Positions 14,875 to 51,847 of a stretch of DNA of 64,000 bases are shown here, one piece after another (the stretch's first letter is position 1; every line of letters starts with the position of its first letter). The notes under the pieces are model-generated. The model was not told where the DNA came from, searched no databases, and saw only the letters and a list, made by a program, of their open reading frames with translations. The position numbers were made by a program, and so were the translations under genes. Origin of the DNA: Fimicolochytrium jonesii (taxonomy: Eukaryota). Where the stretch lies: assembly GCF_025526975.1 (NCBI RefSeq), contig NW_026515668.1, positions 992,001 to 1,056,000 on the forward strand, given 5' to 3'.

Positions 14875-16603
14875 ATGGCCACCCTGGGTTGCCGACGGCG
14901 GATATGCGCCTTCCGGCGGGAATACTTACCACTCAGTAACCGCTCAGCGCTGCGACCATGCTCTCGGCCAGCTCTTCTTATACCGCCCGGGCTTTCACAG
15001 CCAAGACTTTCCAGTTCGCAAGGCCTGCAACGGCCACAGCACATCAGTACAGAAACACAACCAACAACAGGAAGACGGCCGGCACGGCGGAAAATAGCGT
15101 GGATTATAACGGCGGGCAGAGTTGGGAAGGATAAGCAAGCGGCCGCGTTGGCGGCGAGGATGGGTTGTGAGGTCGAGTGGAAGAATGTGATTCCAGCGCC
15201 AGGTGTGTAGATGACATTGCCGTCTTCATATCCCCGCTAAGCTCGTAAAGCTCTGTACTGAGTGCTATTGGCTTTCCACAGCGATAAAATGGCTCTTCCC
15301 CGCCTTCCAAAAGCGCCTCCTGGACTACCGTCAAGAAACCTACGGCCCGCACTCCGACCGCCGCGACCTCCCCTGGTTTCTGTTCTCCCCAACCCACCAC
15401 ACACTCGCCCCGCCCTACCCGTCCGTCGTCCTCTCCACCTGCGCCGAGACGACATTAGCAGCCCTGCACACCAAAGTCAGCAGCCTGGGCAGAACGCGGG
15501 CGGTATGCGTTGGCATGCCGTTTGTGTCGCTGGAGGAGTTTGATGCGGCCGTGGTGGCGAGGTGGGAGTGGCCGGCGTTGGCGTTACAGAAGGATGCGAA
15601 GGTCGGCGGGAGGGTGGTGCCGGTGGAGCTCTGTCTTAATAGTGTGGGAAAGGGTGTGCTCGGCGCTGGGTCGACGGCTGGGGAGGGAATACCGGAATGC
15701 TTTAGGGCGCAGGATGGGATGGTGCTTGCGGTGCTGATAGGGGGAGGGCAGGAGCGAGACTTTGGGTGGCATAATGATGATGTGACGAAACTCATCAAGA
15801 TGCTTCAGGTAAGACCGTGCACGTGGGGATGTGTCCTTCCGTGCAACGTCCCTAACGTTGCGATCTTTTCAAATAGCGAGTGCTGGATGTCCACCAAGCC
15901 AAAGTCTTGTTGACCTTCTCACAACGCACAACGCCCTTTGTAAGTGATAGCATCGCTTTCCCCCACGCTGGGTATGTTTGTTCCTGAGTATCAATCCCAT
16001 TGACTTTCCACACTAGACCCGCGAAATGATAACAGCATGGCACGACCGCCAGCCCGACGCCACAAAATCACGTATACATATCTATAAGGAGGAGCCTAGA
16101 GGAGCCTCAACACATAACATCGAGCCCTTAAATCCGTATGAAGCATTCCTCGACCTCGCAACACATATAGCAGTAACGGCGGACTCCCTCACCATGGTGT
16201 CAGAGGCTTTGTCTGTCCGGTATGTTGTCAATACCCAGAAAATGGAGCGGGGACGTTTCACGCTCACATGCATATTGTCACTCCGCGTACCTCCAGCAAA
16301 CCAACATACATAATATCCCTCGCCACCCTGACATCCCGCCCCAAACAAGCCGTATACGCCAAACTACTCGAACAGCGGCGGATCCGGCGTTTCGTCCCTT
16401 CACGATACCCAGCCATCGACGTGCATGACCGGAAATTCGACATATTAAGTGATGTCGGCGAACACCCACCTTGGTCTTTGGAGGAGACTGCGGATGAGAC
16501 GGACGCTGTTGCGGAGAAGGTCTCTGAGCTGATATGGGGCGCAGAGAAGGTGGCGGAAGAGAGCAAGGAGGATTCTCTTAGAGTAGATAGGGAATTGGCG
16601 TAA
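14875..16603 (+). CDS. Mitochondrial fission ELM1-like protein (Mito_fiss_Elm1 family), multi-exon, start uncertain
   Basis: N-terminal AWIITAGRVGKDKQAAALA and C-terminal NPYEAFLDLATHIAVTADSLTMVSEALS..KPTYII match the ELM1 NPY...VTxDSxSMxSEA..KP motif. Confidence 0.7.
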
Positions 16604-16934
16604 ATTAGAATGACAGTACAGCGTGGACTACGTAGATTCCACAACCATATTGATGCTACGGCAAGCGGTTGACATGAAAAGATTATTGAAGATACTATCT
16701 GTTACAAATACAGGTAATAGCAATGGGGGGAAGGTATGGTGATAACGACTAATATGAGGTGTGTCCATTATCTACATGTGCACTGACGAACGAAATTCTA
16801 TGTACTGGAAGGGACCACGAAGATGTCTGTAAACTAAGCGAGGATTGTGTCATTCGAGCTGGGAAACCGAAAATGGGCTATGAGGAGTATACGCCGTGAA
16901 GAGATTCACAGAGTCGTTTTTTCGAGCATCGGAT

Positions 16935-17887
16935 TCACAGATTAGGTGCGTGAATCTCTTCAGCCGGTGGGACATCGGAGTGACGGGAAATTTCCGACGT
17001 GCGTGGCGAGCGGACCGACGGAGATCGGGTAGAGTACGAATCCCTCCCTTCCGACGCAATGCTCGGATCCGACCCCAACGTATACTTCCTCGAAGTTGCC
17101 TGAGGAGCAATGTAGTCCGGTAACACCGCCATCTTCCCGGTAGCCTTCCTGGAGATGGTCTGCAGAGGCGACTCGGCTGGGGAGATGGTGGTCGGCGTGT
17201 TCCACCCATCCTGCGATCCAGAGAATCGGAACTCGTTCGACGGGACAGGGCTGGTGGCGAAACCTGTCTGCTCCTCCCCAGCGGATATGCGAGTCTTTTC
17301 GTATATGTTTCCACGGAAAGGTGACTCGTCCTCGGCGTCCGCTACGGCCCCTCCCATCGTCCGCTCGGTGAGGATCTGCATAGCGTTGCTGATGGCCACG
17401 TTCCATTCCTGGTAGTCGGTGCTGGAGGAAGCACCAAACCTGTATTCCGAGGGCTTGCCGTCTACGTGCAGGGTAAAGTTGCACGCGGACCGAAGCTGGC
17501 TTTCATCGGATATGGCGTGGATGTTCGCAAAGTGAATGAAGGTGGGGTTGTTGGTGGACGTTTCGGACGAAAGGATAATAAGGAGTGGTGTTCCTTACGA
17601 CAACAGGATTTCAAGGATTAGCACACAAAGATTTTCCCTAAACGGACACGACCTTCCGTTGCCTTACCCTTCACCGCGGCACTAGCCATATTCCCGAGCC
17701 ATTGAATCGACTTCGGTTCCAAACCCTTCTGGGGGTTCTGCTTAAAGACCAAGGTGAACACAAGTTGCAGATCCTCAACGGTGGACGGGGCGCACAGAAC
17801 GACAAACTTCTTCGCTGGAGCGAGGGGCGAGCGCTTGAGGGCGAGAGGTCCCGCTTTAAGGATGCAGGCGAGCTGGGTGTCGGACAT
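16935..17887 (-). CDS. Hypothetical protein, possible N-terminal PH-like fold, 2 exons
   Basis: ILKAGPLALKRSPLAPAKKFVVLC resembles PH beta1-beta2; downstream exon ends in a Ser/Pro-rich tail. Confidence 0.5.
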
Positions 17888-18032
17888 TGCTGTTGAGTTG
17901 GGTGAGAGGTTGGTGTGATTCTGGCGAATGACGGAAGAGCCAAGGAAGGAAGTGTCGTGCGCCGTTTCCGCTCTCGTCTAATTACGTAGGCGCGAAAGGT
18001 TTCGTGTGGGAAGCGCAATTTTTGCCACACTT

Positions 18033-18112
18033 TCGAATTGGTCCAGAAAATCCAGCCGGGGACAACCTGACATTTATTTGGCCAAAATTTCGTACGCCGT
18101 TCTTCTACCTAC
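18033..18112 (+). repeat. 80-bp direct repeat, copy 1 (identical to 29413-29492)
   Basis: tcgaattggtccagaaaatccagccggggacaacctgacatttatttggccaaaatttcgtacgccgttcttctacctac occurs verbatim twice. Confidence 0.95.
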
Positions 18113-18120
18113 GTACTCGC

Positions 18121-19008
18121 TTAAAGCGGTTTGATTGCCCTCAAGTGTAGCATGCTGCACGATGCGATAACGTTGAAAAAATGCACCACCTCCTCCGCAT
18201 CCATAACCCCGACTTGGGTTGTACACGTATCACACCTCACGGGCCAAAATACTGCATCATCGTCTTCCCCATCCTGATCCTGTTCGGCCTCCGTCAACGC
18301 TTTACGCTTCTTCCTATTCGGCGGCTTTTGCACGGGGTATTTGAGTTGCACTGCCGTATCCACAGTGCAGTTCTCAAAGAACATCGCTCGGAACTGTGTT
18401 TCATAGAGTTCATGCTGTTGGCAATCGTGACAGACGGGCGTCATGCAAAGAGGACATGCTAATGTTGTTGAATCTATGATATCCTCCGATGTGTCATTGG
18501 CGCCACGTTCTTCTGCAAATGGCCATCAAGGATTAGTGAATGGGGATCTTATAGATGAAGTACCTTCGGAACTTACGTGCTATCCGCTGGCGCATCCATT
18601 TCTCGTCGTCCGAGTCCGCATTGGGATCGAATAAGAGATCTTCGTCCGTCATCATTTTCACCTTTCTTGTCTGATGTCCTTCAAATCAGCCCGGTGTGGA
18701 GCAAGACAAAGTAAGGGCAGCTTTGAGAAGGTGAGTCGACACAAGACGCAGACACCTAGGACACGGATGCTTGAACTCCACCTACCTTCTCCAGTGGCCT
18801 TTGTTCGATCTCCTCCGGCAACTTCTCGTCCGTCCTCCGAATCGCTGTCAAAATACGCCTCATCATAATATTCGGGCTGCGGTTTTGCGTTATGATCAGG
18901 AGCTTTGCTGGTATTTGCAGACTCCTCGCAAGTACTGCTTCCTTTGAGACTGCCTTTCTCGTTCGCTGGCTTGAAGCCTGCCGCTCTGAATATTTCACTA
19001 GCCTCCAT
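18121..19008 (-). CDS. EAPP: E2F-associated phosphoprotein homolog (Eapp_C domain), multi-exon
   Basis: YYDEAYFDSDSED; DEDLLFDPNADSDDEKWM; CHDCQQHELYETQFRAMFFENC...VRCDTCTTQVGVMDAEEVVHFFNVIAS. Confidence 0.85.
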
Positions 19009-19862
19009 AGCTTGCAGTCCGTTTCACATGCTACGTATGGATTGTGTTGAGTATACTGAGCGGAGCAAGCACGGGGAACACGGGGAAGATCATTCAGACG
19101 GTTGTGGCTTGCCGGCAGCCGCGCCACCTTAGCGCCACATTGCGGTGATGACCATTGATGACCATTGCGGGACGCGCTCAGGTCCACCCTGGCTAAGCCA
19201 CTGACAGTTTTTTGACGACTTTTGGACTTAACGAGGTTTTCGCAGACCCAAAGTTGCTGCACATGTTGAGCAGTATCTTGACAGCCAGACATGCTAGCAG
19301 AAAGATTGATTAGGCAGTTTGGTGAAGAAGGCACTGGTTCAGGGTTTGACACCTCTAACTGGCAAGTTTTACCCAAAAACGGCGAAGGAAAGACAGTTTT
19401 ACTACTCAGACTTTTGGGCCTCTGTGTTAAGTTTGTTGCAACAGCTACCCCCACAGACACTTAGAGGGGATTGGCCAAAGTAGGCAACTGGAGCCGTATG
19501 CAAAGGGAATAGGTCGTCCTGCATGTCTGTGGGATGGTATGGCTGCTCAAAAAAGAGGGTTTTGTGAGGAAACTGCTTTAATTTCCCTAATTGTGCCTTA
19601 AGGTAACGCGTAGAGCGTTTGGGTGGCGCAGCCAGGGTGGACCTGAGGGGACGCGTGATGCGGCGACAGAATCCGATAAGGTGCGGCTCTTCTCTTTCCC
19701 CTTCTTTCTTGGCTTCCCTTTCCCACGCGATTCGCAAGCAATCTCTCGCTCACTTCCTGCATCTCTAATACCTAGACCTACATATATAGAACCGCCAGTC
19801 GGCCTACGCAACGTCTCTTGATTCGAACCTTTCACCTTTCAAGCTCCTAAGCTTCCATCAAT

Positions 19863-20658
19863 ATGTACTCCACCACCTTTTTCGCCTTCCTCGCGACATC
19901 GCTCGGCCTCGTTGGTGCCGCATCTGCTCAGATCGTCCCAAGTTGCGGAACGACCGGCGACCCAACTTGTCTGATTACTACCGCCCAATACACCGTCCTT
20001 GGAACAGTCATCAGCAACAACGCCAACACGACCGGCAGCCCGACCAACTACAACGCCACCATCGACGTTTCCTGCGTATACGCTTCTTTTGGAGTATCTC
20101 AAGGTAATAATAACTTTATTAAAGTGGTTCGATCCGATTTATCGTAGTATCTGCCGTTCAAATAAAAATCACTCTACAGGTGTCGGAGCGGGCTTGGCGG
20201 ACGCAAAAGTTCTCGTTAGCGGCTTCGGCGACCCATACCCTGGCTGCCCCAACAACCTCGGTGCGAGTGCTCCCGTGAACCAGACGGAGATCTTCTTCAT
20301 CTACGTTGCAAACAGGGTCGGACAGAATGCGACACCTTTCTACACCATCTTCAACCCATGCGGGGGTGGTTTGAGCAACAGCACCGGCAACCTGGAAGCC
20401 ATCCGATCGACGCTGGAGAAGAACCCCAAGAACTCTGTTTTGAAAGGATCCCAATGCGCGCTTCCGGCCCCACTGGTCACGTCTACTTCTTCAACCCTTA
20501 CCGCGACAGCCTCCGGATCCACGCCCACACTCTCCTCAAGCCCAAGTCCTAACGCCCTCACTGGATCGGGATCCGGCGCATCGCACGCGTGGTCCTCAGT
20601 TGCGGCTCTGACGATGCTGGTTGCAGTTGCAGGACTTTCCTCTGTTTTCGTTGCGTAA
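19863..20658 (+). CDS. Secreted, probably GPI-anchored, Cys-containing Ser/Thr-rich protein (1 intron near 20104-20178)
   Basis: Signal peptide MYSTTFFAFLATSLGLVGAASA; S/T-rich stalk; small-residue omega region SGSGAS followed by a hydrophobic C-terminus. Confidence 0.75.
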
Positions 20659-22981
20659 GAGTGTGATATCCCATTCCTATTGCCTGGACATTGTAGATAG
20701 GAGGATGTCCGTTTTTGCCCTTCCCTCGTCCCCTTGTACCCTACAGAATGTGCTTTTCATATGCAGTTCCTTGTACTCTATTGTCTCTAATGTGTGTGAA
20801 TGTACGTAATGTGAATAGTACATAATGTGGATCATTAAAGCAATTTGGTCATCATACGGCAAACTACCAATTTCCTCGGGAAGGTTGACACGGCTGCAGG
20901 GATACGAGTTCATCTTGAGATTCGAGTGATCACCCTCCACCCAGACGAGTAATCACCGTAACGTCCCAGGCAGATGGGTTGGTCAGAGCTATCGAATCGC
21001 GACGCCCATCTCGAACTCGGCGTTGAACTCGCGGCTTGACGAAGGCGTCCATGGGGACTCAGCTTTATGTTTGTGCAATCTGCGGGATTGAGGCAAAACG
21101 TCGGAACTCTCGTAAAACATATCCATCTTCAGACTCCTTTGATTTCCTCGGCGTTTCTTGCCCTCGCCCTTAGGGAAGTGCCGAGGCCACCCAGACGTCC
21201 CGGAGTTCCTGAGATATGAGACGCAATGGGTTCGTTCCTCGACTGAATCCAGAAAAGAATTCTCAATTTGTCAATCCTTCTCCCTGTCTGGACCGGGGCG
21301 AGTTGTCCCGTGTTGACTCGTGGGCATTCCAACTTTTCCCGGAATTTGCTGTATCCCCGCACATCTCGTCTCGACCATTTGCACTGTTCCCACGCGACCC
21401 AATGGAGCAGTCGTGCGTCATTTACGAACATGTCCAGGTGGATGTTGCGGATCCAGCGTTGCATTGATGGCATTTCGAATCATGGGTGAACGTTCCTTGG
21501 GCGAAGCTGCTCGCCCATACAATCTTCTCGTTCCGGATGCCGTGGATGTGCTTACTCCATGCTACATCCCCACGTGCAGATGCGTTTGACCTCCGACAGC
21601 GCCTCAGACATCATCGCGGGAGGACCGTATTGAAGGGAAGGTCCCCTGCATTCGCACTACATATCGCATTTCGCTATTGGTGGATGATTCACTGAATTCT
21701 CAGAACGCTGAACGTCCCTATGGAGACTAGAGCAGATGATAGAGCTCGTTCCGCAATTGTTATCGTGTTGGAAACGATATTCCACATGGACCCAAGTCGT
21801 CCAGCGCACATCTCCACCGGGCAGGCTGGCGTTGTGCAGTATGTGTAAGGCCGGGTGCGGTTTCCTCGCTTTCTCACCGACGATTCTGACCTCTGGCTGG
21901 ACGGATGTCTCCAACAGGTTTTTCTCACGTATGCACAGCGACGACTTGTGCCATGAGGCGATACTGAACGACGAGATGAGCATGGTACGAGTCTGCGAAA
22001 TGAATCCCCACCGGGTTCTTGCCGCTTGTTGGTAGCGATCGCACTGAAGTTACCCTTTCCCGACGATTGTTTCATCGAACGTACCCTCGTTGCATCTCGC
22101 ATCTTCCGGGGAGGCTTTTGAAGGTCAGTCCAATGTTCCTGATCTACGATTCCCATCTGTCCCCACGGTGTCCCTTCTTGGCTTCCGCCGAGTGAGAGAT
22201 AGGTTTCCAACCTGGTTTCAACGCAAGCGGTGGATTTGGAGACTCGGAGCTGACCTCACTGAACGACATCTCCCATCCTCCCACATCTGCACACCGCTCT
22301 CAAACTTCCCCCTCTCATACGCAAAAGATTCATAAGAGTTTCCGCCTTTTTTTGATAGTTTTTTTCTCAAAGTTTGAGAAAAGAAGGGTTCCAAAAATTC
22401 CGATCCGCCCAGAGGACGTATCGGGGTTCGGATGTAGTTTTCAACTAGCGAACGATCTGAGCTCAGTCGAGACTTCACAGCTGCAAATTTGCTCCCGCGC
22501 AAGGATAAAGAGAAAGTGAAGGTTGCCGAGGGGGGCTTCCTTTTATAGGCGCCAGCGCGCGAGTGAACGGACTGTGCCACCCGCAATCAGTCACGTGACC
22601 GCAAAACGAAGGTCACGGAAGATTTAGAAGCTTCCCCTCCCGCTTCCCCGCACCAATTTCTGGGTGGCGCAGCCCGACAGCTTTGGATACCAACGCGTTC
22701 CCTTACGGAATGCTTATCGCAGCCGGCTGAAACTCCCACGTCACCTGGAGGGGAAAGTGGGACGGAATAACCTGCGCTAATCAAATCAAATAAGGAAGTC
22801 ATCCGGACGTAACCAGCCGCTAATCCAGCGCACAGTTTGAAATAGGAGATTGATTGCAACCACTCGCGCAATGAATAACGCGATCAGCCCCCTCCTGCTG
22901 CTGCTGACATACCCGCATTTGGGAGTGTGTCACAGCGCCCAGCCCAGCCTGCTCCTCCACACTCCCCGTTTCCCACGCCAA

Positions 22982-22987
22982 TATAAA
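22982..22987 (+). promoter_or_regulatory. Putative TATA box of polyubiquitin gene
   Basis: TATAAA about 130 bp upstream of the ATG at 23117, followed by a pyrimidine-rich leader. Confidence 0.5.
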
Positions 22988-23056
22988 ACCCCTTCCGCTT
23001 CCTGAGACTTCGCTCATACTCTATACTTGCCCAGAACCGTACCTACCCAGTATTGA

Positions 23057-24449
<1,393 letters not shown>

Positions 24450-25894
24450 TGCCCTTGTAGTTCGTCCCCACATTGTACCCCTTTCTGTCCTGTGTATGTT
24501 CACGTCTTGCAGCTTGTGGGTCGTTTTTGATTGAGTGGGGCGGGTAAATCGAAGGCGCTTCAAATATATCGAATTTTCTCTGGCAAACATGCGTTCGTTG
24601 AAATCAATGGCTCCGGCGAACATCCGAGTCAAAGCCGTTCAATTGTTCCTGGTTTTTTATTGGATCGCATCTCATGAATGTTGACTTCTGGCATCTCATA
24701 ACTGGAAACTTCTGGCAAATTTACTATTTTGTAGTTCGCGCATATTGGCCTGCCCGCGCGCCTCTGCACGGAGATGAAGCGAGGTCATATCCCCTCCATA
24801 TGTGCGACTCCGTAATTCACACCTTTCGTTGTTCAGAAGCGAAGACAGAATCTGTAAGATTTCCGCAAACTACATCTGGTTTCGGTAGAGCCGTGCTCAT
24901 ACAACGTTCCTAACTACACGCCTACGCTATATGTGTACCATCCGCCCTTATATGCCCCACATCCAACGCTATCAACGAAAAGATGGCTCCAAAACGGGGT
25001 GGTCCAACTTTTACTCGTTGGATGAGCTCGCAAGTTGATGTCACGTGCCAATTGAATGTGGGGCACTTCTGCTCGTTTTTGTGTAAAGATCGGCGTGATC
25101 GTTACCCACGAGTCACGGGGATTTGCGCCGACCCAGCGGTATAAGCGAGTCTCCATTGTGCTTGCAAGAAAGCCATGCATGAGTCGTGCGCCAAGATCGA
25201 CAAGGGGCTAAAGAGAATCATCAATCATTCAAGCAAAGCCATCTCCAAGCCCGCCGCCGCCCCATGTCCCGTCTCCCACAGCAACTTCCTTTCTCCGACA
25301 GTGGGATACTTTTTCGCCAAATAAGAGGACAGACACCTTACTGCGGGCTTAGACGCCGACGTTCTAGACTCCGTCAGAAAACGATATTCTCGCTAACCGG
25401 CATAAGCGTCATACGTAGGAGTGCCAAGAAATACAATACGTGCGTGGGTTGCCCGCCGCAATGGCGGACTACAAATAGGTCGGGCTGGGAGTTCGTGACC
25501 CTATATGAGGTTGAGAGTGAGACGTAAGGCTCGTTGGGGCATTCGGCTGACGAGAGGACAGGACAGGAAGGACTACACGGCATCGCGTAAGCGCCGGCGC
25601 GCGTAAGTGTTCGCCACTGCTGAGCATTGCCAAACCAACTACGGCCGCCACTCATTTTGAGCTTTGGCGTCCTTGACGTTCAAACCTCACTCGCCACGAT
25701 ATCCGCGTATCACCCCGATAGGCCAAAGAGGAACAACACGTACAAACGGTTCTTGCGATACTTCCAAAACCTCGATTTTCATTTACATTATGGTTTTCCG
25801 CTTCATCCTTGCCCAGGAGCTTGAGAACAAGACAATTCAAAGGGGGAGAAACTATATAATCCGCGGCTAGATCGGCCTTCCTATTTCGCGAATC

Positions 25895-27710
25895 TCATTC
25901 AACTGAGCCCATGCGGCGGCGCTTCACAGGGATACCCGCCTCCCGGTGGATATCGGCCTGCTTCTCAACGATCTCATTCACGTGCGGTGCGACTCGCTTG
26001 TGGCCTTGAGAGAATACGGGCATCCCATCACCTTCAGCAGCCGGCGACACCGATGTGGTCCGCTCCGGCACTTTGCTGAGGATATGCGCGGCATGCTGTT
26101 GAGCGGATGCAGCAGGCCTCAATATGCCGATGCGACCAGCTTCGCCACGACCGTGCTGGAGCTCCATAGCGTCGCAGCGGCTTTGAAGAGCGACGCACTG
26201 CTGTTGTAAAGCGCTCTCGCGAGCGTGCCAGGCTCGTCGCTCGTTCTCGAGCATCGCCATGCGGAGGACGAGCTCGCCATTGGATTGTTCGAGCTTGCGA
26301 ACTTGGCCCTCGAGATGTTGGATGCGTTGAGCTTTGCGTTCTCGGCAGCGACGTGCGGCCTCTGTTTGCAGAAGGAAGGAAGAAGAAGCATAGAGTTAGC
26401 GTGTGAAGGGAACAACAACGACATCAACACAACACACTCCCTCCGTACAACGTACCAGCATTCATCCTCCGCTTATGCGCCAGCTTCTCCTGCTTCGTCC
26501 CCGGCTCAGCGTCATTCATAGGCGTAGGTGACGCTGATCGCTTCGCCTCACCTGTCGACGAGTTCAGTATCATGCCAGACAGCCGAGGCGACGTCCTCGA
26601 GTCGCTCGGCTCATCGGTCACATCAGAGTCATCGTCATACGTGAAATGACTGCTCAGGCTTCGCCGACGGTTCGAGTCGACCGACTGCCGCCTGTCGTAT
26701 ATGTCGGATGGCCGAAGTTGCTGGTGGTCGTCTTCGCTGGTGGTGATGTGTCCTATGGGCGACTTTCCGGATGGGGCGCCGGGCGTTGCGGTCAAGGCAA
26801 TCTCTGGTGGGCCAAGCATCCGCTGCTGGTGACTGTTATCATGACCGTCTCCTGGAATCTTCATCGACTCTACCACATGTTGACGTGCTTGGGACGACGA
26901 CGACGACGACGATAAGTGCGAGTGCGATGCCGGAAAGTACGATTCAGTAGCGTTGACGAGGGATGGAAGAGGCGAATGCGCGCCGACCGTTGGCCGAATC
27001 TCCGGCAGCCGGACTCGATCCCATGTCATCGGCAACGGCTCCGGGCCGTATCGCAGCTCAGACAGTCCCGGCAATGGTTGCGTCGCCGTAGAAGGCAACG
27101 GATCGATCGCATGGAGCGATGCTTGGGTCTGCAGGTGTGCGGGGGATATGGGCTGCGGTTCCTCTGGCCTTGGTACTGGCGATCTGGTGGAGAGCGATGG
27201 TGGGTATGGTGATGATTGATGCAGATGTGATTGATGGTATTGCTGTTGACTATGGTGTGGAGGATGCGTTTCGATCTGAGGAAGACGCTCCGGCTGGTCT
27301 GATCCGCTGTTGCGATTCGGCGGAGCGGGGACGGGTGGCGATGGGGTCCTGACGATGTAGGGGAAGGACCCGCCGGATGCCCGTGACGAGTAGGATGACC
27401 GAGTCGACGCAGACTGGGGCTCGTCTGCTGCCGGAGGTACCGATGCTCCGAGCTTGGCTGTTCTGATGGGGTTGATGGCTGGCGTCGCAAATTGTCTGCC
27501 GGGACTTGTGCCGCGTATCTTTGCTGATGAGCCCGATGCAGCGTGAGTCGACATGTCACCCTCTTTTGCGACGTTGAGCTTGGCGAACTCTGTCGGTATT
27601 GGATACGGCAAGTATGGCGGCGCGCCCGGCTCTGGAGATATCAAGGCAGCCATGGCGGTGGAATCCTTTCGATCGGTCATACGGAACGATGTAGGAGCGG
27701 TTACATGCAT
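25895..27710 (-). CDS. bZIP transcription factor with long low-complexity N-terminus; intron 26362-26455 (start uncertain)
   Basis: Splicing gives KRRMNAEAARRCRERKAQRIQHLEGQVRKLEQSNGELVLRMAMLENE, a basic region (N-x7-R) plus leucine zipper. Confidence 0.88.
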
Positions 27711-29412
27711 GCTTTGGGAAGGGTCTTGCCGACGACCCTTATGTGGGGCGTTGATTGGAAGCGGGCTGCGACGATACGCAGGCAGGCGACGGCGAGCGAT
27801 TTTCTGACAAATGTGGCCGTGTGTATGGGATACCTGCACAGGGGTGTCCGCTCACAGAAAGTAAAGATGGTGCCGTAGACGTAGGCAGTCGAGAAGGACG
27901 GATCCAGAAAAGTCTAAAACGATGGAGACGAGGTCAGGGCAATCAGGTATATAAGGCATGTGTGCTTTTTCTACCCCTTCTGCACAGCGCTTGAGGCCAG
28001 CGAGCGACAAAGAGGGGGACAGAACCGACGCGTTGGCTTGGGAAACCCCTGGTGACGTACCAAGTCCGCCCGAACGATGACGTGGCGTGGGGGTGTGCAG
28101 GCTTGCGGCGAGGAGGCGGAAGCTTCCAATTCTTTGATCACTGGATCACGGTTACTGCTGGAATTGCGAAATAAAGACAAGGTGAAAAGGTCACTACCAC
28201 CCATGCATGCGCAGGGTATCCGTCGGCGAGAGCTGAAGACCTTGCTTACCTTTGCGACGAGGTATTGCAAACGAAAGTAGGCCTGACTCTGACGTGGAAG
28301 TGATGATATGCGCGATATCCTTTTTCGACCAGTTGAGATATCTGCGTTGAGCGACGTTGGAGGAACGGGAGAAATCCATGCTGATTAACCAATACCCGAG
28401 GACTTGGACGTACGTACGGGTGTGATCAATAGTAATGCATGCCTTGGGTTTTGCTTAGTATTTGATGTGATGAAAGCGGGGGCGGGAAATGAAAGGGCAT
28501 TCACGTCGCGACTGCTGGGCAGCGCCGTCGTCATCATGTGCATCTATATTCAAAAACGCTAAAAATGATTCGTTCCTTGAGCCTTCTTCCCTCCTCGAAC
28601 GGAGCCTTCCTTTCCTGCGCCCCGTTTCACGCGGGGCAGTCCGCCTGGCTCATTTGGTCATCACACTCACAAAAACCCACGAGCTAAAAGCCAAAACATG
28701 GAAATAGGAGATATCTTGGCTCTTTTTCTTCTTCCATTGGCGATGCCCTTTCGATATGGCATATCTTCGCGAGCGAAATGAGAGACGGGAAGAACTTGGC
28801 GTCGGATTCTTGCATGTCTGGCGTGTTCGGATTGTGATGGCATGAGTTTTGTATGAGTTGGGAGGCATGACGTTTTCCCCATCCCCTTACATGTAATGAC
28901 ATCATGCTGCAGGGAGTCGAAGCTTCAGGGAAGCACTCTCAAGTTCAGCACTCAGTCGAGTTTAGAAAGCCAAAACCCGCCTGCAGAGTCACATGGGATG
29001 GGGAATGTGCATCCATGTCCGCAAAGCCTCAGACGGTCGATGATTCAGGCGGAGTTGATATGCGAGCGTGCGACTCAAATTGTTGGATATGAAGTAGCAG
29101 AAAACGACCATGGCAACCATTGTGCATCCTCACCACACCTGCCACTCCATCTACCCTCTGCATCTGGCCAAATCATCAGTCTTCGCTGACATTCGTCGTG
29201 AGTGGTATAGTAAAGTCTTTCCTGAACAGAGGACGCCCTGACGCGAGAGAGGTACCGCCCGATTTCGAGTGTGAAAAGGCTTGGCTAAGCACAATTTCGC
29301 GTGGGAGACAGCATGATGACGCATTGACGTCAGACCTTACGTCAATTGTCACGTGCCCGCGCGAGCTCCGATGGGTTTCGACAGCGCGTTCCCCGCGATT
29401 ATAACGTTGCGG

Positions 29413-29492
29413 TCGAATTGGTCCAGAAAATCCAGCCGGGGACAACCTGACATTTATTTGGCCAAAATTTCGTACGCCGTTCTTCTACCTAC
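29413..29492 (+). repeat. 80-bp direct repeat, copy 2 (identical to 18033-18112), 32 bp upstream of the helicase-nuclease ATG
   Basis: Exact match to copy 1. Confidence 0.95.
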
Positions 29493-29524
29493 TGTACGTA
29501 CGGATAAAGCGAAGACGTTACAAG

Positions 29525-32500
29525 ATGAGTAACCGCCGCCCTAACTCCAACCAGGATGGGGACCGCCCACAAGGCCCTAGTCCGAAAAAGCAACGATCCA
29601 TTGGATCTGGAGGCCCTGTGACATCCGGGCCTCCTCAAACTGTCTTTGGGCAATCCGCCCCCACAACCGACGCAAACGCAAACATTCTCGCCTTGCTACA
29701 CGGCTTGGATCCGAATGCACGAGAAGCCGTACAAAGGGTGCTGGCATTGCCTGAAACACAACTCAACGCATTAAGGTCGCATTTTGGAACACGCGGTGAG
29801 ACTGGGATAAACGATGGTGGTCCAGCGCACGGCGATAGGGAAATACCCGATCGCCTGGATGTGCCAGCACCTCCCATAGAGGTGTTCTCACAGGATGCGC
29901 CACTCAGAAGCAGCTTCGAAGATTCTATCGCTCAGAGCGCACTAAATGCCCTTCCTATCGTTTCCAACCTCCCGCCGCAAGCTGCTGAATCCCGTCGCTC
30001 CATTCTTCACGCTCTGTGGAACTACTTGGAACATCTGCACAACAATCCGACCGAGACGAGATCTTTTGACGTACCCGATCGCCTCAACAGCGACCCTTTT
30101 TCTGTGCATAGAAGCATCGTTTTTCACACGAGACGGAACTTTGGCCATGCTGAAGCGCGACGGATGATCGCAGATACCCAAGGGGCGATGCGAAGGCACA
30201 ACCCGAGCTGCGAAATGTGCCAGCATAGCGCGGCGGCTTGCATCTATTTCACTCTGCTGGATTGTCACCCACAACTACAGCTATACAACGCCAGCGTCTT
30301 CCAGCAGGCCCTGGCAGATCTCCCATACGATGTGCATCAGGAAGAGGCGGTCACTGCGGATCCGGACAGCCCCTTGCTGATCAACGCAGGGTATGTGTAA
30401 TCTTCATTTCGGATTAAACCTCTGGCATGCTCATTCAAGCCCGCTAAGGTAGACCTGGTACGGGAAAGACAGCTACTCTTGTTGGGCGGGTCCGTTATCT
30501 CTTGGGACACGGTACCCCGGCGCACAAGCTGATCATCATCACATTCACAAGAAACGCCGCGGAAACGCTGGTCGAGCGATGCAACACCTTGAATGATGGG
30601 GTCGTGAAGTGTTCTTTTCCTTTTGCTCGCACGATCGACTCCTTGGCACGTCTGTTCTGCGAGCTCTTTGTGCGAAGCGGGTCCCCACAATTGCTCTCCG
30701 ACACCGAATATGCGGACTTGGTTGCTTCCAAAATGTTGGGCGACGATGCTCATGAGCAGGAAAGTAAAAGATTCCTTTCGGCATTACAGACCTATTATCG
30801 CACGACCTATTGCGACCCGGAGCTGCAACCGAGACTAGCGGAGTTAAGTCAGATTCACCACACTCTGTGGGAAGAAGGGTATTGCAGCCACAGAGTTCGG
30901 CTGATATCGGCCGTCAAGAAATTGGAAAGCTCTCCAATTCTTGCCGAACACTTCAGACTTCGATACTACTTCCTGGTCGATGAGTACCAAGACGTCGATC
31001 TATGGCAAGAAGCGTTTATTATACGATTAGCGCTCGGTCAATACGCTTTCCAAGCCCCGGCGGACGTTCCAGAGCCTTGGCGAAGAATCACCGTAGTCGG
31101 AGATGACGATCAAAGCATCTATCTCTTCAGGGGCGCTGAACCTGAGATTCTTCATCGATTCCGGAGCCATTTTCCGCAGGGGAGGCGGGAGGTGACGTTG
31201 ACGTCCAATTATCGGACGCTGCAGCGTATCATTGATTTCAATGCAGGTGTGGCGGGACTTTTGAGTGCAAGGCTGAAACCACCGGACACACGGTTTATAT
31301 CGCAAGTGCCGAGTGGTGTGAGGAGATTCTCTTGCGACGTCATTGGGATGTGTATGGAGACTACGGTAAGGCAGGAACTGTCATTGAACACACGCAGGAT
31401 GAAAACACTGATCCATACTCGATTTAACAGCTTGATGAGGCTGTGAATCATACGGCGCTGACCATCTCGAGGCTCGTAGTCGGCGAAGCAGTCGATCCCT
31501 CAACCATTGGCATTTTCGCCTACCGGAATGATGAAACTGCCCGCATTTCGCAAATCATCACGGAGGAGAAGGCTTTTGATCCGAGCGCCATTCTCATATC
31601 CACCATTCACGGCGCTAAAGGCCTAGAACGCGAGCACGTCTTTGTCATTCTCGCCATCAGGAAGGGAAAAGTCTGCGCGGACGATGAGGAACGAAGGCGT
31701 GTCTACGTAGCATTAACCCGAGCCAAATTCACACTGCACGTGGTTCTCTATGGACAGTGCGGGGTCGGTTGGACGGACTTGATGTCGGGATTCTGTGGAA
31801 GCACATATGGATTTTACGAGCCGAGATGCATAGTACATAACGTGGAAGAGGAAGAGGAGCACAATAGCGATACAGACACCGGTGTTGTGGATCCCTCAGT
31901 TCGACGGCGGGAGATCATCAGTCAGGATTCAGACAGGACCACTTTGGGTGTGCCGTCCCAACAATCTTCTTTTCCACCGTCAATGCCGTCCCACCCAGGG
32001 CTTTCATCAGGCCAGGAGGCCTTCTCTTCGTACTCACCAACCCCGCAAGCTCCCGCCATTCTCTCGGTTTCATGGGATACGGGCATACCTCTCCCGACAC
32101 CTACGCATTTCCTCTCGGCAACGAAGCTGTCAAGCTACTTCGTTATGCATTGCCCGCGGTTACTACACCGAATGGCACTACCTCGGGGCGCCGGGGCGCC
32201 GGACACCAATACGGAAGACTCGGCGTTGTCCAAACTTCTGATGCAGAGTGGCGATGCATGGGAAGCACGGATCGTCAATAGCCTCGGGTCATCAGGCAAG
32301 CTTGCCTCCAGCCAACAACGGATATCCTCGGACACCGAACTCGTAACGTTATTGAAAAACGTCCCCGATGGCCATTATGTGTATGAGCCAACCATCAAGG
32401 TCTCTCCTGAAGTAAATCTCGCCATCGGTCTGCTATGGCCAGATTCTGCTGTTCACCCGAGCATCAATGTGATCAAGCCGGATTTCTTGCTTGTTAATCG

Positions 32501-35500
32501 GTATGAAGCGAAAGTCATTGTTCAAATTATTGATGCCAAGTTTAGCACAAGCACGAAATCATATCAGGTAGTGTTACTATTTCCTTCGGCAGTTTCGAAA
32601 GAAAAATATTGCGCGCAGACTAATTTGCGCCTATTCTGTATGTTGTAGAGGATACAAGTGGCGATTTATGCGCTGATTCTGGAGACACTCTTTGCGAGAG
32701 CCCATGTTTCCAATATCGCTATTCACCATCAGGGCGTCATCTGGCTTCCAGGAGCTCAGGATAGGGAGGCAATCCCTCCCCAACCCGCACCGCCGGAGGT
32801 TATGGGTGAACGAAAGCCTTTCGAACTCCGTGGTGTCATCGCGGGTCTTCAGGCGTTCCTACAGAACAAGTTACCTTACATACTCTCGAATCGAGGAGAA
32901 CAAGATTTCCACATCGCGCTGGAGTGTCGAAAATGTGCTCATCTACAGGGATGCATGAGCGAAGCGGCAGCGAAAAACGACGTTTCCTTGGTTCCGGCTA
33001 TAGGCCGCGAACAGAAGAGCAGACTCGCTGCAGAAGGGATTCGTGATATTGAATCGTTGTGCACCGGAAAAGGCAACCATATACTTGACAACGCAGACAT
33101 CAGGGTTGGTGCTTGCAAGCGAACTGTGATGCACACGAACATTTCTCACTCGGAATTGCTTTGTAGGCTCGCTCCGTGCAGTTAAGACGACCAGTGCTTT
33201 TGGGACGCCCGTCTCTCCGTGTCCCGAAATCCGAAAGCCAAACGCTCATTTTGACTTTACGACAAGACCCGCTGACACGGAAAGTTTGCATGTTCGGATT
33301 TGTGCATTACATCGACAATGTAAAGCAGATTCAGCGAGGATATGTCGAAGACACCACCGCAAATGTACAGAGCTTTATAGGACGCGTCGGGCATATCATG
33401 CTGGGTACCTCTCAAAACAAGAATAGCTTGCAAATCTGGGTGGGAGAGCGGAGCGAACTCAGGATATTGGGGGACCTCCTCATCTCCGTTCTGTCAGAAC
33501 CGAATCTGGATCGGAACGTCCGGAAAGCGACAGAGGCAGTCTTACGAGGTTCTATAGTCAATGCTGCAGTTGCCGCGTCGCTAGATCGGCACTCTGATCC
33601 TACTCTGGCGCCCTGCGCATTAAGCATCGTAAGCGAGGTGCAGGCTGTCATTGCACTGCCTATTGCTTCCACCACTGTTCGACAACTTGCCAGAATCTTT
33701 GAACGGCCGGCTCAGGATGACTGGTCATCTACTGCTGCAATCTTCGCTGATGGCGATGAGGACGACATTTTTTTGGAACTACACAGGGCCCGTGCTCATT
33801 TGCTATTGAAAGATCCCGACTTTCTGGATTTGATGAAGGCGAAGATCCAACGCCAACTGGATGATTCGCGCATGGTTCTGCTAAGGTTCCGGGAATGGAC
33901 TGCAGGTTGGCTGAAGTGCGAACCTCGTCCTTTCAAATTCGCGGAAAAGCTTCGAATCAAGAATCCTATTTTGTCTCAGCTCGCTTACTTGCGACTTGTG
34001 GAAGCCGTGGATGCTTGCGAACAGCTGGCCTTCGACAGAATTGCCGATCCGGTCCCGATGATCATTGTACCAATTGAAAGCATTAAGGACACAAGAGTCT
34101 TTAAGTTTAAAAGCGCCGGAGACGTCGCCCACGAGCGAATCTCACACGAGACCGCCAATATTTTTAACCAGTATCTCATATGCCGAGAGGACGCCAGAAA
34201 TGAGATGGGGAAAATCCGGGATCTCGAAATTCTGGAACTAGTAAGTCCTGCGCAGTTCAACATGGCACACCGGCATTCGCCGGTGCGAGCTGCGATGGTC
34301 CAGCTTTCAGACAACACAGATGGCTCGCTCCTCATCGACTTCGCAACGAACGTCGGCGACTTCATTCGATGTGATAACGTTTCCCGGTATGTTGCTTTCC
34401 CGCGATACATGAACGCAACGCTCCGGAAGGGGATTTCGCACTTGAAGACTGTGGACGAGCAGTTCAACAAATTGACCCAGATTGGAAGGAACCCGGTCGA
34501 GCCGCTGGTTTGTAAACTGATCAAAGGGGAAGCTATCGTTTCACGCCCCGCCGATTTCAATCGTTGGTGGCCGCTGGATGCCGACAATAGCTTGCATACA
34601 GGGGACGCGAAGCGATTTCCTCTCTCCCCGCACCACCGCTCCATCATTCAAGCAATCGAAAACAACCCCGTACAACTCATAGTCGGCCCTCCCGGCACTG
34701 GCAAAAGCTTCTTTCTTGCTGCACTGTTGCTTGCTCGTCTACATACTGCCCGCACCGGTAATCACTCTCGCAACCAGATTCTGCTCCTCACCGCTTGGAC
34801 ACACAGCGCTGTCGATACCGTCATTGAAAAAATGATGGAGCATACCACGAGCTATATAGACCGCAAACAAATCGTGCGGTTGTCGGACAAGCCGAATCCG
34901 GACAACCCGCATATCACGTACACATCGCCAAAATCCTCTCATTTGCAAAATGTAATCAAGGACTTGAAACATGTTGTCATCTGTGGAACTATTTGGCAAC
35001 TAGCAAAAGTCAAAGAAGTCTTGCCCTCCGTCACTCAAGCCGACCGCATGCTTTGCATTGAGGAATGCTCTCTGATGCCTATCATTGAGACATCCGTCGC
35101 TCTGTCGCTCATGGTTCCCAACCCACCTAGAGGATCAATTGTTATGATCGGGGATCACCTTCAAATCGGCACGCTGAATAAGGGACAGGGAGGACCTGAC
35201 GATGAGAGGAATGATTTGAATGACTCGCTTTTCAATCGGTTGGTCAACGCCAATCAACCCCGGCCAGTGAGTCTGGTGGCCACTTGGCGATTGAATAAGG
35301 TTGCAGCGAGTATTTTGCGGCGGTTCGTCGGCTACAACGGGTATGCTCCAGCCAATTTGGAAGTCGGCCGACAAAATCTCGGGCAACTCCTCGACACGGT
35401 GCAAGCGCGCGCTGAGGTTGCGAACTACGCGCTGTCAAAACTCTTACACTCGGTCTTTGATCCTGCAAAACCGATTGTCCTCATTGTTCTGAGGTGGGAA

Positions 35501-36069
35501 TGCTGTTCATCTCCTTATTCATCATGTATGCTACTGACATTTAAGTCTCCAGGGATAGTGAAAAAAGCGGAATACTACCGCATATAGAAATAATGCTAGC
35601 AACCTATTTGACGGAACAGCTTCATATGTTCACACGTTCAGGCGATCGTCCGCTTGACATCCTGCACATGGTAACCCACCATCGGAAGCGGATCCTTTTA
35701 CAACTCGCCCTATCGCAGTACTGCAACTTCCCACACCAACCAGTTGTTACGATTCACAAAAGCCAAGGAAAGGAATCAGATGTCGGCATAATTCTATACG
35801 CAACCGCCAGCGAGTACGACACGACGGCTGAGGCGCAATATCTATACGACCGGACGTTGATGAACGTCGCGCTTAGTCGGGCAAGGCGAAAGACGGTGAT
35901 GATCGTGTCCGATTCGCTGTTACAATGTTTGACGGTAGTGGGCAACGACAACGCCATAGAAGGCTTTCAGCTGCTACATGGTCTGTCACGAGAGACGCAG
36001 ATGCGGCGTACGCACGTCGAAGTCGAATCGAAAGTGCTGGAAGAGCTATTTGCCAATGGCCTCCCGTAA
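29525..36069 (+). CDS. About 2071-aa fusion: UvrD/PcrA-type SF1A helicase + PD-(D/E)XK Cas4/RecB/TM0106-like nuclease + DNA2/UPF1-type SF1B helicase; introns 30391-30452, 31366-31430, 32568-32648, 33105-33166, 35494-35552
   Basis: All five GT-AG introns join the ORFs in frame. UvrD motifs: NAGPGTGKT, ITFTRNAA, LVDEYQD, VVGDDDQSIYLFRGA, LTSNYRT, STIHGAKGLE, EERRRVYVALTRAK. Nuclease: LSATKLSSYFVMHCPR, IKPDFL, IIDAK, QVAIYALIL, CRKCAHLQGC. SF1B motifs: VGPPGTGKS, LTAWTHSAVD, IEECS, IGDHLQ, TWRLN, TIHKSQGKESD, MNVALSRAR. Confidence 0.88.
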
Positions 36070-36181
36070 CTTTTTACACAGCCACATATACCCCAGTAAC
36101 AGTATTTCTTTGAGACATCTAATGAAGGAGTTTCTGCCTAACAGCAGCACATTAAGCTTGCTCAGGCAGAAGTGTCGGTAA

Positions 36182-36239
36182 AATTCTATACGCAACCGCC
36201 AGCGAGTACGACACGAGACAGACCATGTAGCAGCTGAAA
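36182..36239. repeat. Templated filler: 36182-36216 is a direct copy of 35790-35824; 36217-36239 is an inverted copy of 35965-35987
   Basis: Exact matches by inspection to the last exon of the upstream helicase gene. Confidence 0.9.
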
Positions 36240-36588: not shown

Positions 36589-39578
36589 CTATGGAATCTG
36601 GAACCCTCCATCTCTGCATAGCCACACTGCATACCACAAGCGATCCGCTAGGTGGTCCGCATCTCCGAAACCTAGATGCAGCTCCAACGTGTCACTGCAA
36701 GTACGAGACGAAGGCAAATGATCCCCTTCATGCTGAGCGATATCCACAACTATCCTGTCCTTCAGCGGCAGTGCACGGCTTGACGTCCAGAAGAACAGCA
36801 GGTCCCGCAGAGACATGCCCCTTCTAGGTGCAGTGAGCGCCATGCGAAACCATCCCTTCACTAGTTCTGTCTTTTCCTCTTTACGGCGATCAACAATGGG
36901 AGGCAAATACACAATCTTCTGGAACAGCTGGTCGACATCCAGACGCCAATTGAATAGATGAAACAATACCGCGCATGGCGTGCCAGAGACGAAGTCGCCG
37001 ACCGAAGCGATCCCTTCCTTGTTCTGATGGGTGGCTGGGCGACAACAGGTGTACAAGACATGTTTGGTTAGATCTTGAGCAAAAGCGACGGGCTTGTCCG
37101 ATTCCGCTTCAATGGGGTAACCAAAATGCTGGCACAACGTGGTGACTCTGGAGGTATGGCAAGGGGGGGGGGGAGGGGGGGAGAGGAGTCGTTCATGTCA
37201 ATACACCACGACCACAAGAAGGAAAAGGAAAGATACAGAATAGCAGCGGGCAACGCACTCTTCCTCGACTTTTGCTGTCTTTTGTGCAGGAGTCAACGCG
37301 GGGCCTGAGTCGATCGCCATGTCGTCCATCCGGTAGTCCGTAAGAACCTTCACAACCCATCCAAGGGATCGGTTGAAACGTGATATCATCTTCGGTGATA
37401 TAAACCGGCAGGACATTTCATTTTCCGGATGACAGAGAACATTGATCAGGATGGGTGAGAGGGTCTCTGGAAACACATTGCCGTGCAATGCAGAGTGAGC
37501 CAACAATCGCCCGAACCCCCTGAAGTCCAGGTTTGCTGCCGGGATGCCGGACACCGGAAGGAAGCACTGTGCACCTTCCCAGTGAGGGTCGCTTTCTACA
37601 GTGAAAGTCTTGATGGCAATCTGGAAAGCTTCCTTGGTGAGACCGCCCCCGATGTGAAACCCCGCATCCACGCCGTCCTCGCCCACGAAATTGAACGATG
37701 ACTTAAACGTGGCGTTCTTTACGCCCGCGCACCAGGCCCAGACGGCATCCGCCACTGAATTCTTTATTCGACCATTCGGGAGCGTTACCAATTCACTATG
37801 AGTTACTATAAAGTGTTGAAAAATGGCACTTGTCAGTTCGACTCCACCCAAAGGACAGCGAAGACCCATTCTGATTACGCACTGTTAACCGTCATGTCCA
37901 CATCCCTGTCTTTGTTCAACCCATTGAGACGGTCACAGAAATGATTATACAAATCCTGATAAGACCAAGGGTCCTGTCCAGGCAGACATTGCATGCAACG
38001 ACCTTCGTCGCTGAGGTCCTTGGCGGTTGACTCTGCGATGCTCCCAGAAAACAGGTCTTCTGCATCACGCGTATGGTAGAAAGGGAAACGGGTCTTGTCT
38101 CGGGTGGAGGGCACTGCGGGCGCGCCGCTACTGGGTTCACGGGCCAGCAGTTCATTTGGTTTCGGCGTCGGTAAGATCAGATCATAAGATTCAGGCGTCT
38201 TAACGTACTTCGAGGCGTCGGCAGGGAGGGATGGCTGTGTGACCCGTCGCTTGGTCTGCAATCTTGTCCCATACGTGTGGCGCATGCCGGCACTGCCAGC
38301 AAATCCACCGAAGACGGACTGTGTATCCTGGACGGTGCCGCTGGACGTCGCTGGCACACTCCTTTGTTCCACCGTGTTGGGACACCGAGCATATGCCTCT
38401 GAAATGCGCTGTTGCGCTAGGTCGATGACAGCGAGTGACACCTCGTTAGGAAAGTGCCCCCGGGCGAACCCCATGCCTGGAAAGCATAACCAATTCTGGT
38501 AAGCCATTGCAACTGCGTGTGCACCGCCGTCATCTACACATCTTGCGCCGTTCCCGACATCCATCAGGTCCTGAAGAAACTGGAGAGCGCCCTCTCTTCC
38601 CTTCTTGTAAAAACGCAAATCTTTGTCTGTCTTGTCGTAGTAGCCGGTTTGCTCCTTAAGAAACATGCTTAAACACTGGTCGACCGGTAGTCTCTCGAAG
38701 GGCCTTGCGTTCTCCTCCGCTATCTTTCGTCTGACTTCCTCCAAGGTTGGAGGCGATGGGATTAAAAATGCATCATCAGGAGGTGAAGACAAACAAGCAG
38801 GCACGAGATGAGCTAGTTTTGGGAAAGCATCATCCGGAGGTGAAGGTGAACGAGCAGGCACATAAAGAGGTATGTTTGGGAATGCCAGACCTGGAGGTGA
38901 AGGCGAAGGAGCAGGCACGATATCTCCAGCTAACGGCGGAGCTCCCGGTTAGGCGATTCCCGTAGGTAGGCCAGGTGGGGGTTTCCTAGGGGAGATGTTC
39001 CATGTGCCACTTTTCGGCCCACGCAGGGCTTCAGACGTCTCCGTTTCGTCCTCTGGCAATCCCCCCTTTCCCTTTTCATATATGGCCCCAGCCCTGCTGC
39101 GGCCCACGGCGGGGATAATGCCTTGCATCATGTTAGTGAAGTCAGCCGTCTCACCATCCGAGTCCGACTCAATGGGAGGCCCCATGGCAGCGCTCTTGAC
39201 AGGATCAGACTGAATGTTGTTGTCTGGAGGGGGGGCACCGAAGTATCAGTAGAGGGGCGGGAGAGTGTATTTTGAGTACAGCGACATACAGTGCATAATC
39301 TCAAAGGCTTCCGGAATCTTCTTTGTCCGAAGGGATTTCTTATCGTGAAGAATGGCATCCCGGATCTCCATATGGATGAAGGCGTACTGGAACGCCTCTC
39401 GATCGCCCCACACGGAGCAATGGGGTTGAACCCAAATCCCTTTGTCTATCTTCTTCGCATATTCCCAGAAAATGTCCCACTTAACATCGTTTGGCTGCCA
39501 GCCGAGCGGACTGATATTCTGATGCCTGCGTTGTGAGAATTCCAATGCCCAAGGGGAATCTGGAAGATGGCGAAACAC
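36589..39578 (-). pseudogene. HECT-domain E3 ubiquitin ligase (transposon cargo); introns 37148-37258, 37806-37882 and about 39224-39290; one in-frame TAA at 38949-38951; 5' end unresolved
   Basis: N-lobe FVGEDGVDAG...GGLTKEAF...FRGFGRLLAHSALHG..FPETLSP; C-lobe LLFFWTSSRALP...LPSSRTCSDTLEL...GGF with the catalytic Cys. Introns restore the frame. Confidence 0.8.
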
Positions 39579-44367: not shown

Positions 44368-44641
44368 TGTAACGTCAGAGGAAACGTAGACGATATTGGG
44401 CCCTTCTGAGGGGGCTGAGAGCAGTGTATTGTAGTGAAGAAAAAGTAAGAAGCACTTTGCAGCGGCCGCTCGACTGACAGCTTTATATATGGGCTGCCAG
44501 TGGGGCTTGCGTGGCTTCAGTGAGGCTTGGCGCCTTATGTAATGTATCAACGAGAGGTCGGGTGGCCAGCCCGGGTCTCAGATCAAGTAGAAGTAAAGAG
44601 ATATAATATGAAATACAAGTGAAGATGAGATATCCCCGACA
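44368..44641 (-). repeat. 3' LTR
   Basis: Direct repeat of 49267-49540 with about a dozen substitutions counted by eye. Confidence 0.95.
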
Positions 44642-49540: not shown

Positions 49541-49585
49541 TGACAGTCCCCCACTCCGACGAAAACGCGCTGTCGAAATTGGTAC

Positions 49586-51825: not shown

Positions 51826-51847
51826 CCTTTTTGTTCTCAGCCCCGCC

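Follow-up and report, generated by a model that had tools for sequence, protein, structure and literature searches.

A predicted chytrid protein joining a UvrD-type motor to a Bad-type nuclease-helicase core in one chain

The locus and its product

The chytrid Fimicolochytrium jonesii carries, at 29525..36069 on the forward (+) strand of the window analysed here (64,000 nucleotides (nt) of contig NW_026515668.1, positions 992,001 to 1,056,000), a gene of six exons whose spliced translation gives 2071 amino acids (aa) and a single terminal stop. Comparison with its orthologues confirms this as one conserved gene, whose predicted chain combines two unlike DNA motors with an iron-sulfur-type nuclease. 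The exons, on the (+) strand like all features of the gene described below, lie at 29525-30390, 30453-31365, 31431-32567, 32649-33104, 33167-35493 and 35553-36069, as given by spliced translation and orthologues, and the product is identical in every residue to XP_052930145.1 / KAI8826898.1 of NCBI (P0001 in our set). The NCBI gene model is probably a prediction as well, and the predicted splicing is supported by homology. All five introns are of the GT-AG type and 59-81 nt long, with a GC content of 40-47% against about 51% in the surroundings, and keeping any one of them brings in a stop codon within at most 31 codons. Intron 1 (30391..30452, 62 nt) splits the Walker A motif of the UvrD motor; intron 2 (31366..31430, 65 nt), intron 3 (32568..32648, 81 nt, within the nuclease) and intron 5 (35494..35552, 59 nt) contain the branch-like sites CTGAT, CTAAT and CTGAC, respectively, and intron 4 lies at 33105..33166 (62 nt). 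Since exon 3 holds both the end of the UvrD motor and the start of the nuclease, the join between these two is independent of splicing. An initial annotation, made from the sequence of the window, had proposed six in-frame exons of about 2071 aa and a single chain of three modules; the exon structure is confirmed, every motif it quoted was located in the spliced product, and the domain order is kept in the orthologues. The F. jonesii database record is labelled merely as a P-loop hydrolase, and the labels found for these proteins include P-loop hydrolase, DNA 3'-5' helicase and tripartite DNA replication factor. In a Pfam scan, UvrD-helicase, UvrD_C, AAA_11 and AAA_12 all score over their cut-offs.

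The first motor, of superfamily 1A (SF1A), is UvrD-like and occupies aa 266-705 (30320..31766), with motifs I-VI intact: AGPGTGKT begins at residue 288, DEYQD at 465, NYR at 541, TIHGAKGLE at 651 and YVALTRAK at 685. Motifs IV and V are only 110 apart, whereas in a comparison set of 59 UvrD open reading frames (ORFs; 80 metagenome loci) the median distance is 280 and the minimum 134, which indicates a UvrD motor without the 2B subdomain. The model of the orthologue from Spizellomyces 'palustris' (pLDDT, predicted local distance difference test, 88) agrees, showing a helix followed by a short loop at the site of 2B, so that an early suspicion of a missing 2B is borne out; UvrD and PcrA are the top fold matches of its UvrD part. 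The monomeric Rep helicase is activated by deletion of 2B (PMC13238157), and the chytrid protein would offer a natural instance of a UvrD motor without this auto-inhibitory domain.

The motor is preceded by an extension at aa 151-265 (29975..30319), helical in the orthologue model, 21-27% identical among chytrids and without a family match. A basic cluster, PKKQRS, at aa 20-25 (29582..29599) is a predicted nuclear localisation signal; such a cluster occurs in all five chytrid records examined and is lacking in the distant orthologue P0173. Behind the motor, a low-complexity linker (aa 726-818, 31827..32105) contains an [S/T]QDS motif that is invariant in four chytrid proteins. As a possible kinase site this motif is a weak, post hoc lead, and the S/TQ excess in the linker gives p 0.36 in this protein and p<0.05 in three of seven records, again post hoc.

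The linker is followed by an iron-staple PD-(D/E)XK nuclease and a helix-hairpin-helix (HhH)-like segment (32106..33077). The KPD motif stands at 942, DAK at 961 and QVAIY at 975, and the four cysteines (C834, C1065, C1068 and C1074) as well as E871, D944, D961, K963, Q975 and Y979 equal the consensus of 89 relatives. The cysteine pattern singled out in the initial annotation is thus that of the family. A single position departs from the nuclease consensus, with Q in place of H972 (H972Q); judged by its residues the active site is intact, and an Fe-S cluster is predicted from family knowledge.

Between the nuclease and the second motor lies a central region at aa 1116-1600 (33078..34594), defined by profile alignment, secondary structure and fold model, with a predicted RNase H-like sheet, a helical part and a beta-barrel at the position of SF1B subdomain 1B. 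Its start has the pattern of three strands, a helix and a strand, with no acidic pair on the first strand. The RNase H-like assignment is a lead only, drawn from secondary structure and an Atlas match to RNase_H_2 of 0.84, below the 0.9 level. Profile alignment places nuclease, central region and helicase collinear with the 1245-aa protein P0141 over 1096 columns, central domain included, at 21% identity and probability 100. The length of P0141, its D150 in the nuclease motif and its K815 in Walker A agree with the numbering of the Bad enzyme of Geobacillus (PMC7430649), to which it was matched by these numbers and not by accession. The C-terminal ~1200 aa of the chytrid protein are, by this alignment, a complete Bad-type core of Fe-S nuclease, central domain and helicase. 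An AlphaFold2 model of the core from 61 rows (pLDDT 89, predicted template modelling score 0.90) forms a single compact unit, with Dna2 and Upf1 as best folds. The central domain of Bad, absent from DNA2, was called unknown in 2020 (PMC7430649), so that the RNase H-like pattern would be a first structural lead for it.

The second motor, of superfamily 1B (SF1B), is UPF1/DNA2-like by motif comparison and fold match and spans aa 1601-2030 (34595..35943), with GPPGTGKS at 1631, EEC at 1756, GDHLQ at 1786 and NVALSRA at 2004. It retains K1637 of Walker A, the catalytic E1757, Q1790 of motif III, and the arginines R1832 and R2009. Sequence and family alignment show that the Walker B codons GAG GAA (35060..35065) encode EE in place of DE. 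The atypical Walker B reported in the initial annotation therefore stands, though not as the sole oddity, since this motor differs from its family at six motif positions in all.

Conservation, distribution and origin of the fusion

Full-length orthologues with the same domain order and about 40% identity are found in Spizellomyces punctatus, S. 'palustris' and Geranomyces variabilis, and the fusion is thus retained across three genera of Spizellomycetales. Among chytrids the two motors, UvrD and SF1B, are each 50-51% identical, the nuclease 43-46% and the central region 27-31%. P0173 (2846 aa) has an identical domain layout at only ~25% identity. The join of UvrD and nuclease is also found in records from Rhizophlyctis and Paraphysoderma.

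Searching 1.84 billion representatives by profile gave 1911 matches at E<=0.001, 118 of them at E<=1e-30. The family counts given here rest on the best 150 of the 1911, of which three are the queries themselves, leaving 147 other rows. Nuclease and SF1B occur together in 131 of these 147 best-listed rows, mostly in chains of 1200-1500 aa, and an SF1A module is present in the same chain in four of the 131 (three by motif census, P0129 by Pfam). By these counts the fusion is rare, in keeping with the earlier view of an unusual architecture. A full-text literature search, with subscription journals largely uncovered and supplements excluded, found no description of a UvrD-Bad fusion or of the chytrid gene. 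A word-index search with the nuclease region returned the query alone and overlooked known orthologues, so that it says nothing on distribution. A metagenome scan yielded nothing but UvrD-family genes, and none of the 80 retained loci had a nuclease or SF1B alongside. On viral contigs, none of 182 pattern matches was a relative, and the viral fold library matched helicase parts only, at 10-18% identity; a viral origin is thus not supported.

Single chains with two motors are also found in bacteria; of these, P0072, P0097 and P0108 came from a second search. UvrD comes first in the eukaryotic proteins, in P0157 (Myxococcota) and in P0129, and last in Planctomycetota; the order nuclease-SF1B-UvrD is seen in P0108 and P0176, both from Planctomycetota, and in P0072 and P0097. 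Fusions of the planctomycete type have a full 2B, and their UvrD part is up to 56% identical to stand-alone planctomycete UvrD. A search of 401 sampled genomes did not find the fused planctomycete form, 37 of them having matches with a longest open frame of 1430 aa, and no study of bacterial single-chain two-motor proteins was found in the literature searched.

Relationships were examined in a 44-row tree of nuclease and helicase columns (quick IQ-TREE, LG+G4, unrooted), from which three chosen rows lacking a domain had been dropped; the groups for the approximately unbiased (AU) tests were defined by architecture, after the single-domain trees had been inspected. Chytrids and P0173 form a clade (Shimodaira-Hasegawa-like approximate likelihood ratio test 97), and grouping them with the Myxococcota-type or the planctomycete fusions is rejected (p-AU 1.6e-10 and 0.0024). 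For the aligned sequences, these tests reject one shared origin of the bacterial fusions and the eukaryotic fusion; a history of gains with losses would still be compatible with them. In the UvrD tree, the eukaryotic and Myxococcota-type SF1A modules fall in one unresolved group. There are also many bacterial RecQ-UvrD fusions of ~1750 aa (P0020, P0031, P0033 and similar), and in the same tree their UvrD portions show a loose grouping with the modules that lack 2B.

Bad-like cores without UvrD (P0185, P0243, P0182 and P0152) occur in Rhizamoeba, Pelomyxa, Podochytrium and Acaulospora, extending Bad-type enzymes to fungi and amoebae. A single clade of fungal cores is rejected (AU p 6e-36), so at least two fungal lineages of the core exist. 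Gene transfer from bacteria, the derivation suggested at first, is no more than plausible, as the trees have no root and the core also occurs in other eukaryotes.

Motors of 3'-5' type are joined to the Bad core in bacteria too, namely UvrD in Planctomycetota and Myxococcota and the superfamily 2 (SF2) helicase DpdJ. In the DpdJ variant (L001 670-14570; L003-L076), the Bad-like nuclease is encoded on its own, and the gene behind it fuses SF1B to the SF2 helicase DpdJ; this arrangement is seen in 53 of the 59 loci that have 7 kb or more of upstream sequence. dpdA adjoins 27 of 59 loci of this subfamily, mostly with dpdB and que genes too. The available part of the YprA preprint (PMC12458937) does not mention the variant. 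A donor from dpd islands was considered for the chytrid gene and rejected, the subfamily not being the nearest clade and the query being biased toward it.

The gene lies on a 2.2-Mb contig amid ordinary fungal genes; those upstream, at 8531-27851 of the window, encode a SNF2 helicase, an ELM1-like protein, polyubiquitin and a bZIP protein. Positions 18033-18116 hold a copy, 85 nt at 98.8%, of 29413-29497, a stretch upstream of the gene. Downstream, 170 nt past the gene, begins a 21.9-kb element (36241-58118). Its ends are inverted over 122 nt (84%), AAA stands at either junction, and by its appearance it is a large DNA transposon. It encodes a HECT-domain ORF (36589-37197), an rva_4 integrase (56249-57766) and an AAA_11/AAA_12 gene (51800-55389) that is split among three frames, and contains a long terminal repeat (LTR) retrotransposon with LTRs at 44368-44641 and 49267-49540. 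A third copy of its subterminal palindrome (TTACGTAA...TTACGTAA) lies inside the element beside an LTR (49574-49620). Pieces of the gene's last exon have been copied downstream (36173-36239 and 58119-58162), that from 35781-35824 in direct orientation and that from 35924-35990 inverted and cut in two by the element; the templated duplication is therefore older than the element, which inserted into it.

Possible mechanism and competing explanations

The reading we prefer, by analogy and at a little short of an even chance, is a one-chain version of the Sgs1/BLM-Dna2 resection machine, in which a 2B-less UvrD motor is joined to a Bad/DNA2-type Fe-S nuclease-helicase. In this scheme the UvrD motor, de-repressed by the loss of 2B, would take the lead as a 3'-5' helicase; the 5' strand that it displaces would pass through the nuclease and be cleaved, and the remodelled SF1B might serve as a weak feeder of single-stranded DNA (ssDNA), leaving a 3' tail. 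The polarities, the Fe-S cluster and the DNA substrate assumed here are taken from family knowledge, and how the modules are coupled and how the motors share the work are inferred in this analysis. Bad is a 5'-3' motor that is kept from unwinding by its own nuclease, a block that, its authors propose, is lifted by partners (PMC7430649); DNA2 with a RecQ lead helicase has been modelled, for yeast and human, as a bidirectional machine whose DNA2 motor only translocates on ssDNA (PMC5393063). As the iron-staple nuclease precedes SF1B in the manner of Dna2, Sgs1/BLM-Dna2 is a better model than the RecBCD-like machine raised as a possibility in the initial annotation. A one-chain form might resolve the puzzle that enzymes of the DNA2 kind cut their track in front of the motor, and, with RecBCD and Sgs1/BLM-Dna2 both built from separate chains, a natural one would open motor coupling to study by single point mutants.

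Several observations weigh against two motors and a nuclease working as one machine. SF1B departs from near-invariant family residues at H1614, E1756, L1760, T1941, K1945 and H1968, positions at which another residue is common to 73-86 of 89 relatives (D/E pooled at 1968), and the adenine-binding Q is among those altered. Walker B reads DE in 133 of the 147 listed rows and EE in two, with 12 unmatched, and from sequence the second motor may be dead. The UPF1-like Aquarius has reversed polarity (PMC6138625), so that a 5'-3' direction for this SF1B is an inference from Bad and Dna2. The modules are separated by a low-complexity linker of ~95 aa, so that their contact is a supposition, a whole-length fold match to Dna2 is poor (template modelling score 0.31, root-mean-square deviation 30), pointing to a different domain arrangement, and 127 of the 131 listed relatives have no SF1A in the same chain. 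In Rhizophlyctis rosea the layout is spanned jointly by two adjoining protein records with UvrD partial, and the Paraphysoderma sedebokerense record (UvrD and nuclease, 803 aa) is without Walker A and ends after the HhH segment; these may be annotation splits or genuine ones.

A more ambitious version, which we regard as rather unlikely, is a bipolar single polypeptide with both motors active, pulling opposite strands past one Fe-S nuclease, that arose independently in early-diverging fungi and protists, in Planctomycetota and in Myxococcota by union of a 3'-5' motor with a Bad core. If true, it would provide these eukaryotes with self-contained destruction or resection of DNA ends that does not depend on MRN-Sgs1-Dna2-Exo1 and might be directed at DNA viruses or mobile DNA.

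The altered SF1B could alternatively hydrolyse no useful ATP and serve only as an ssDNA channel, making the protein a single-motor SF1A helicase-nuclease of AddAB-like logic. This is unlikely, though the six changes are coordinated and common to other Spizellomycetales, and helicase-dead Bad still binds and precisely cuts 5' overhangs (PMC7430649). The retained Walker A lysine, catalytic glutamate, motif III glutamine and both arginines argue otherwise, as do the conservation of SF1B to the same degree as UvrD (~50% among chytrids) and the DE and Q motif kept by P0173; EE at Walker B is also found in the active helicases Aquarius and ZNFX1. The SF1B thus appears to be under selection but remodelled, and the motor may be weak.

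Two further alternatives strike us as improbable to a similar degree. The first is a processive RecBCD-like bipolar machine, with two fast motors and one nuclease for both strands, that destroys foreign linear DNA. The parts list of RecBCD, an SF1A, an SF1B and a single RecB-family nuclease, is the same (PMC3064778), a methyltransferase adjoins Bad (PMC7430649) and dpdA adjoins the bacterial subfamily described above; however, no RecC-like subunit or domain is found in the protein, the nuclease precedes SF1B in Dna2 style, SF1B is remodelled, the dpd subfamily was retrieved by a query made from itself and is not the nearest clade, and the fungal neighbours are housekeeping genes. The second is a tether between two mechanistically independent enzymes, a translocase that clears proteins in the manner of Srs2/Rep and a Bad-like nuclease acting on flaps, with recruitment or regulation in common, for which speak the long linker with its conserved [S/T]QDS, the different fusion order in Planctomycetota and the mostly stand-alone Bad-like cores, and against which stand the retention of the fusion over the distance to P0173 and the loss of 2B, which fits a dedicated lead helicase. 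That gene prediction merged two neighbouring genes is very improbable, although the Rhizophlyctis and Paraphysoderma records are split or short: UvrD end and nuclease start share one exon, the remaining joins are canonical in-phase introns of 59-81 nt, and annotation shows this fusion in three genera as well as in P0173, there as a single protein record.

As to the role of the protein, DNA repair or fork processing in the nucleus is slightly favoured, and defence against mobile DNA is possible at clearly less than an even chance. The basic cluster and the linker [S/T]QDS lean weakly to a regulated nuclear repair function; by analogy, the bacterial neighbourhoods (methyltransferase by Bad, dpd genes by one subfamily) would lean to defence, so that the anti-virus or anti-transposon role raised in the initial annotation is supported indirectly at most.

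Comparison with known systems

The TM0106 family (TIGR03491) likewise has the order nuclease-HhH and a predicted RNase H-like region. The likeness to it proposed at the outset was not upheld, the score being 29 bits against a cut-off of 97.45 and the match confined to the cysteine cluster and the HhH part, and Bad is the closest characterised kind. The DpdJ model matches the chytrid protein over the SF1B part only, and the 32 window ORFs scanned include no dpdA, dpdB or que genes and no DpdJ SF2 helicase. UvrD, PcrA and Rep have all SF1A motifs I-VI in common with the chytrid motor, which, however, lacks 2B, is fused to a nuclease-helicase and scores far under their equivalog cut-offs. RecBCD, AddAB and AdnAB also combine an SF1A motor with a RecB-family nuclease, to which RecBCD adds an SF1B motor, but these are multi-subunit enzymes, and the chytrid SF1B is UPF1-like rather than RecD-like and its SF1A is without 2B. 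RecBCD has three subunits, one of them the Chi-scanning RecC; Pfam and NCBIfam scans of the chytrid protein gave no RecC-like domain, and it has no inactive helicase of the RecC/AddB kind.

Eukaryotic Dna2 with Sgs1/BLM/WRN likewise places an Fe-S nuclease before SF1B and relies on a 3'-5' lead helicase partner (PMC5393063). In contrast to Dna2/Sgs1, the chytrid protein is a single chain, its lead motor is UvrD-type rather than RecQ, and it has the Bad-type central domain. Dna2 is its best match in the PDB by profile and fold; the profile match spans the helicase only, the whole-length fold similarity is low, and the protein is not a Dna2 orthologue. Dna2 also has an N-terminal OB domain, which the chytrid protein lacks. 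The initial view that this is neither canonical Srs2 nor canonical Dna2 is upheld, for Srs2 without direct comparison.

With Bad of Geobacillus stearothermophilus (PMC7430649), the chytrid protein shares the iron-staple nuclease with its one plus three cysteines, the Bad-specific central domain and the C-terminal SF1B. A methyltransferase neighbour, as at Bad, was not found among the window ORFs scanned. In Bad the nuclease is N-terminal in a chain of ~1250 aa, whereas in the chytrid protein it is preceded by 818 aa that include the UvrD motor; the linker, the six altered SF1B residues, the introns and the predicted nuclear signal are further differences. The architecture, of which the literature searched gave no description, is assembled from known parts, and the protein is a variant containing a Bad-type core rather than a plain member of the Bad family.

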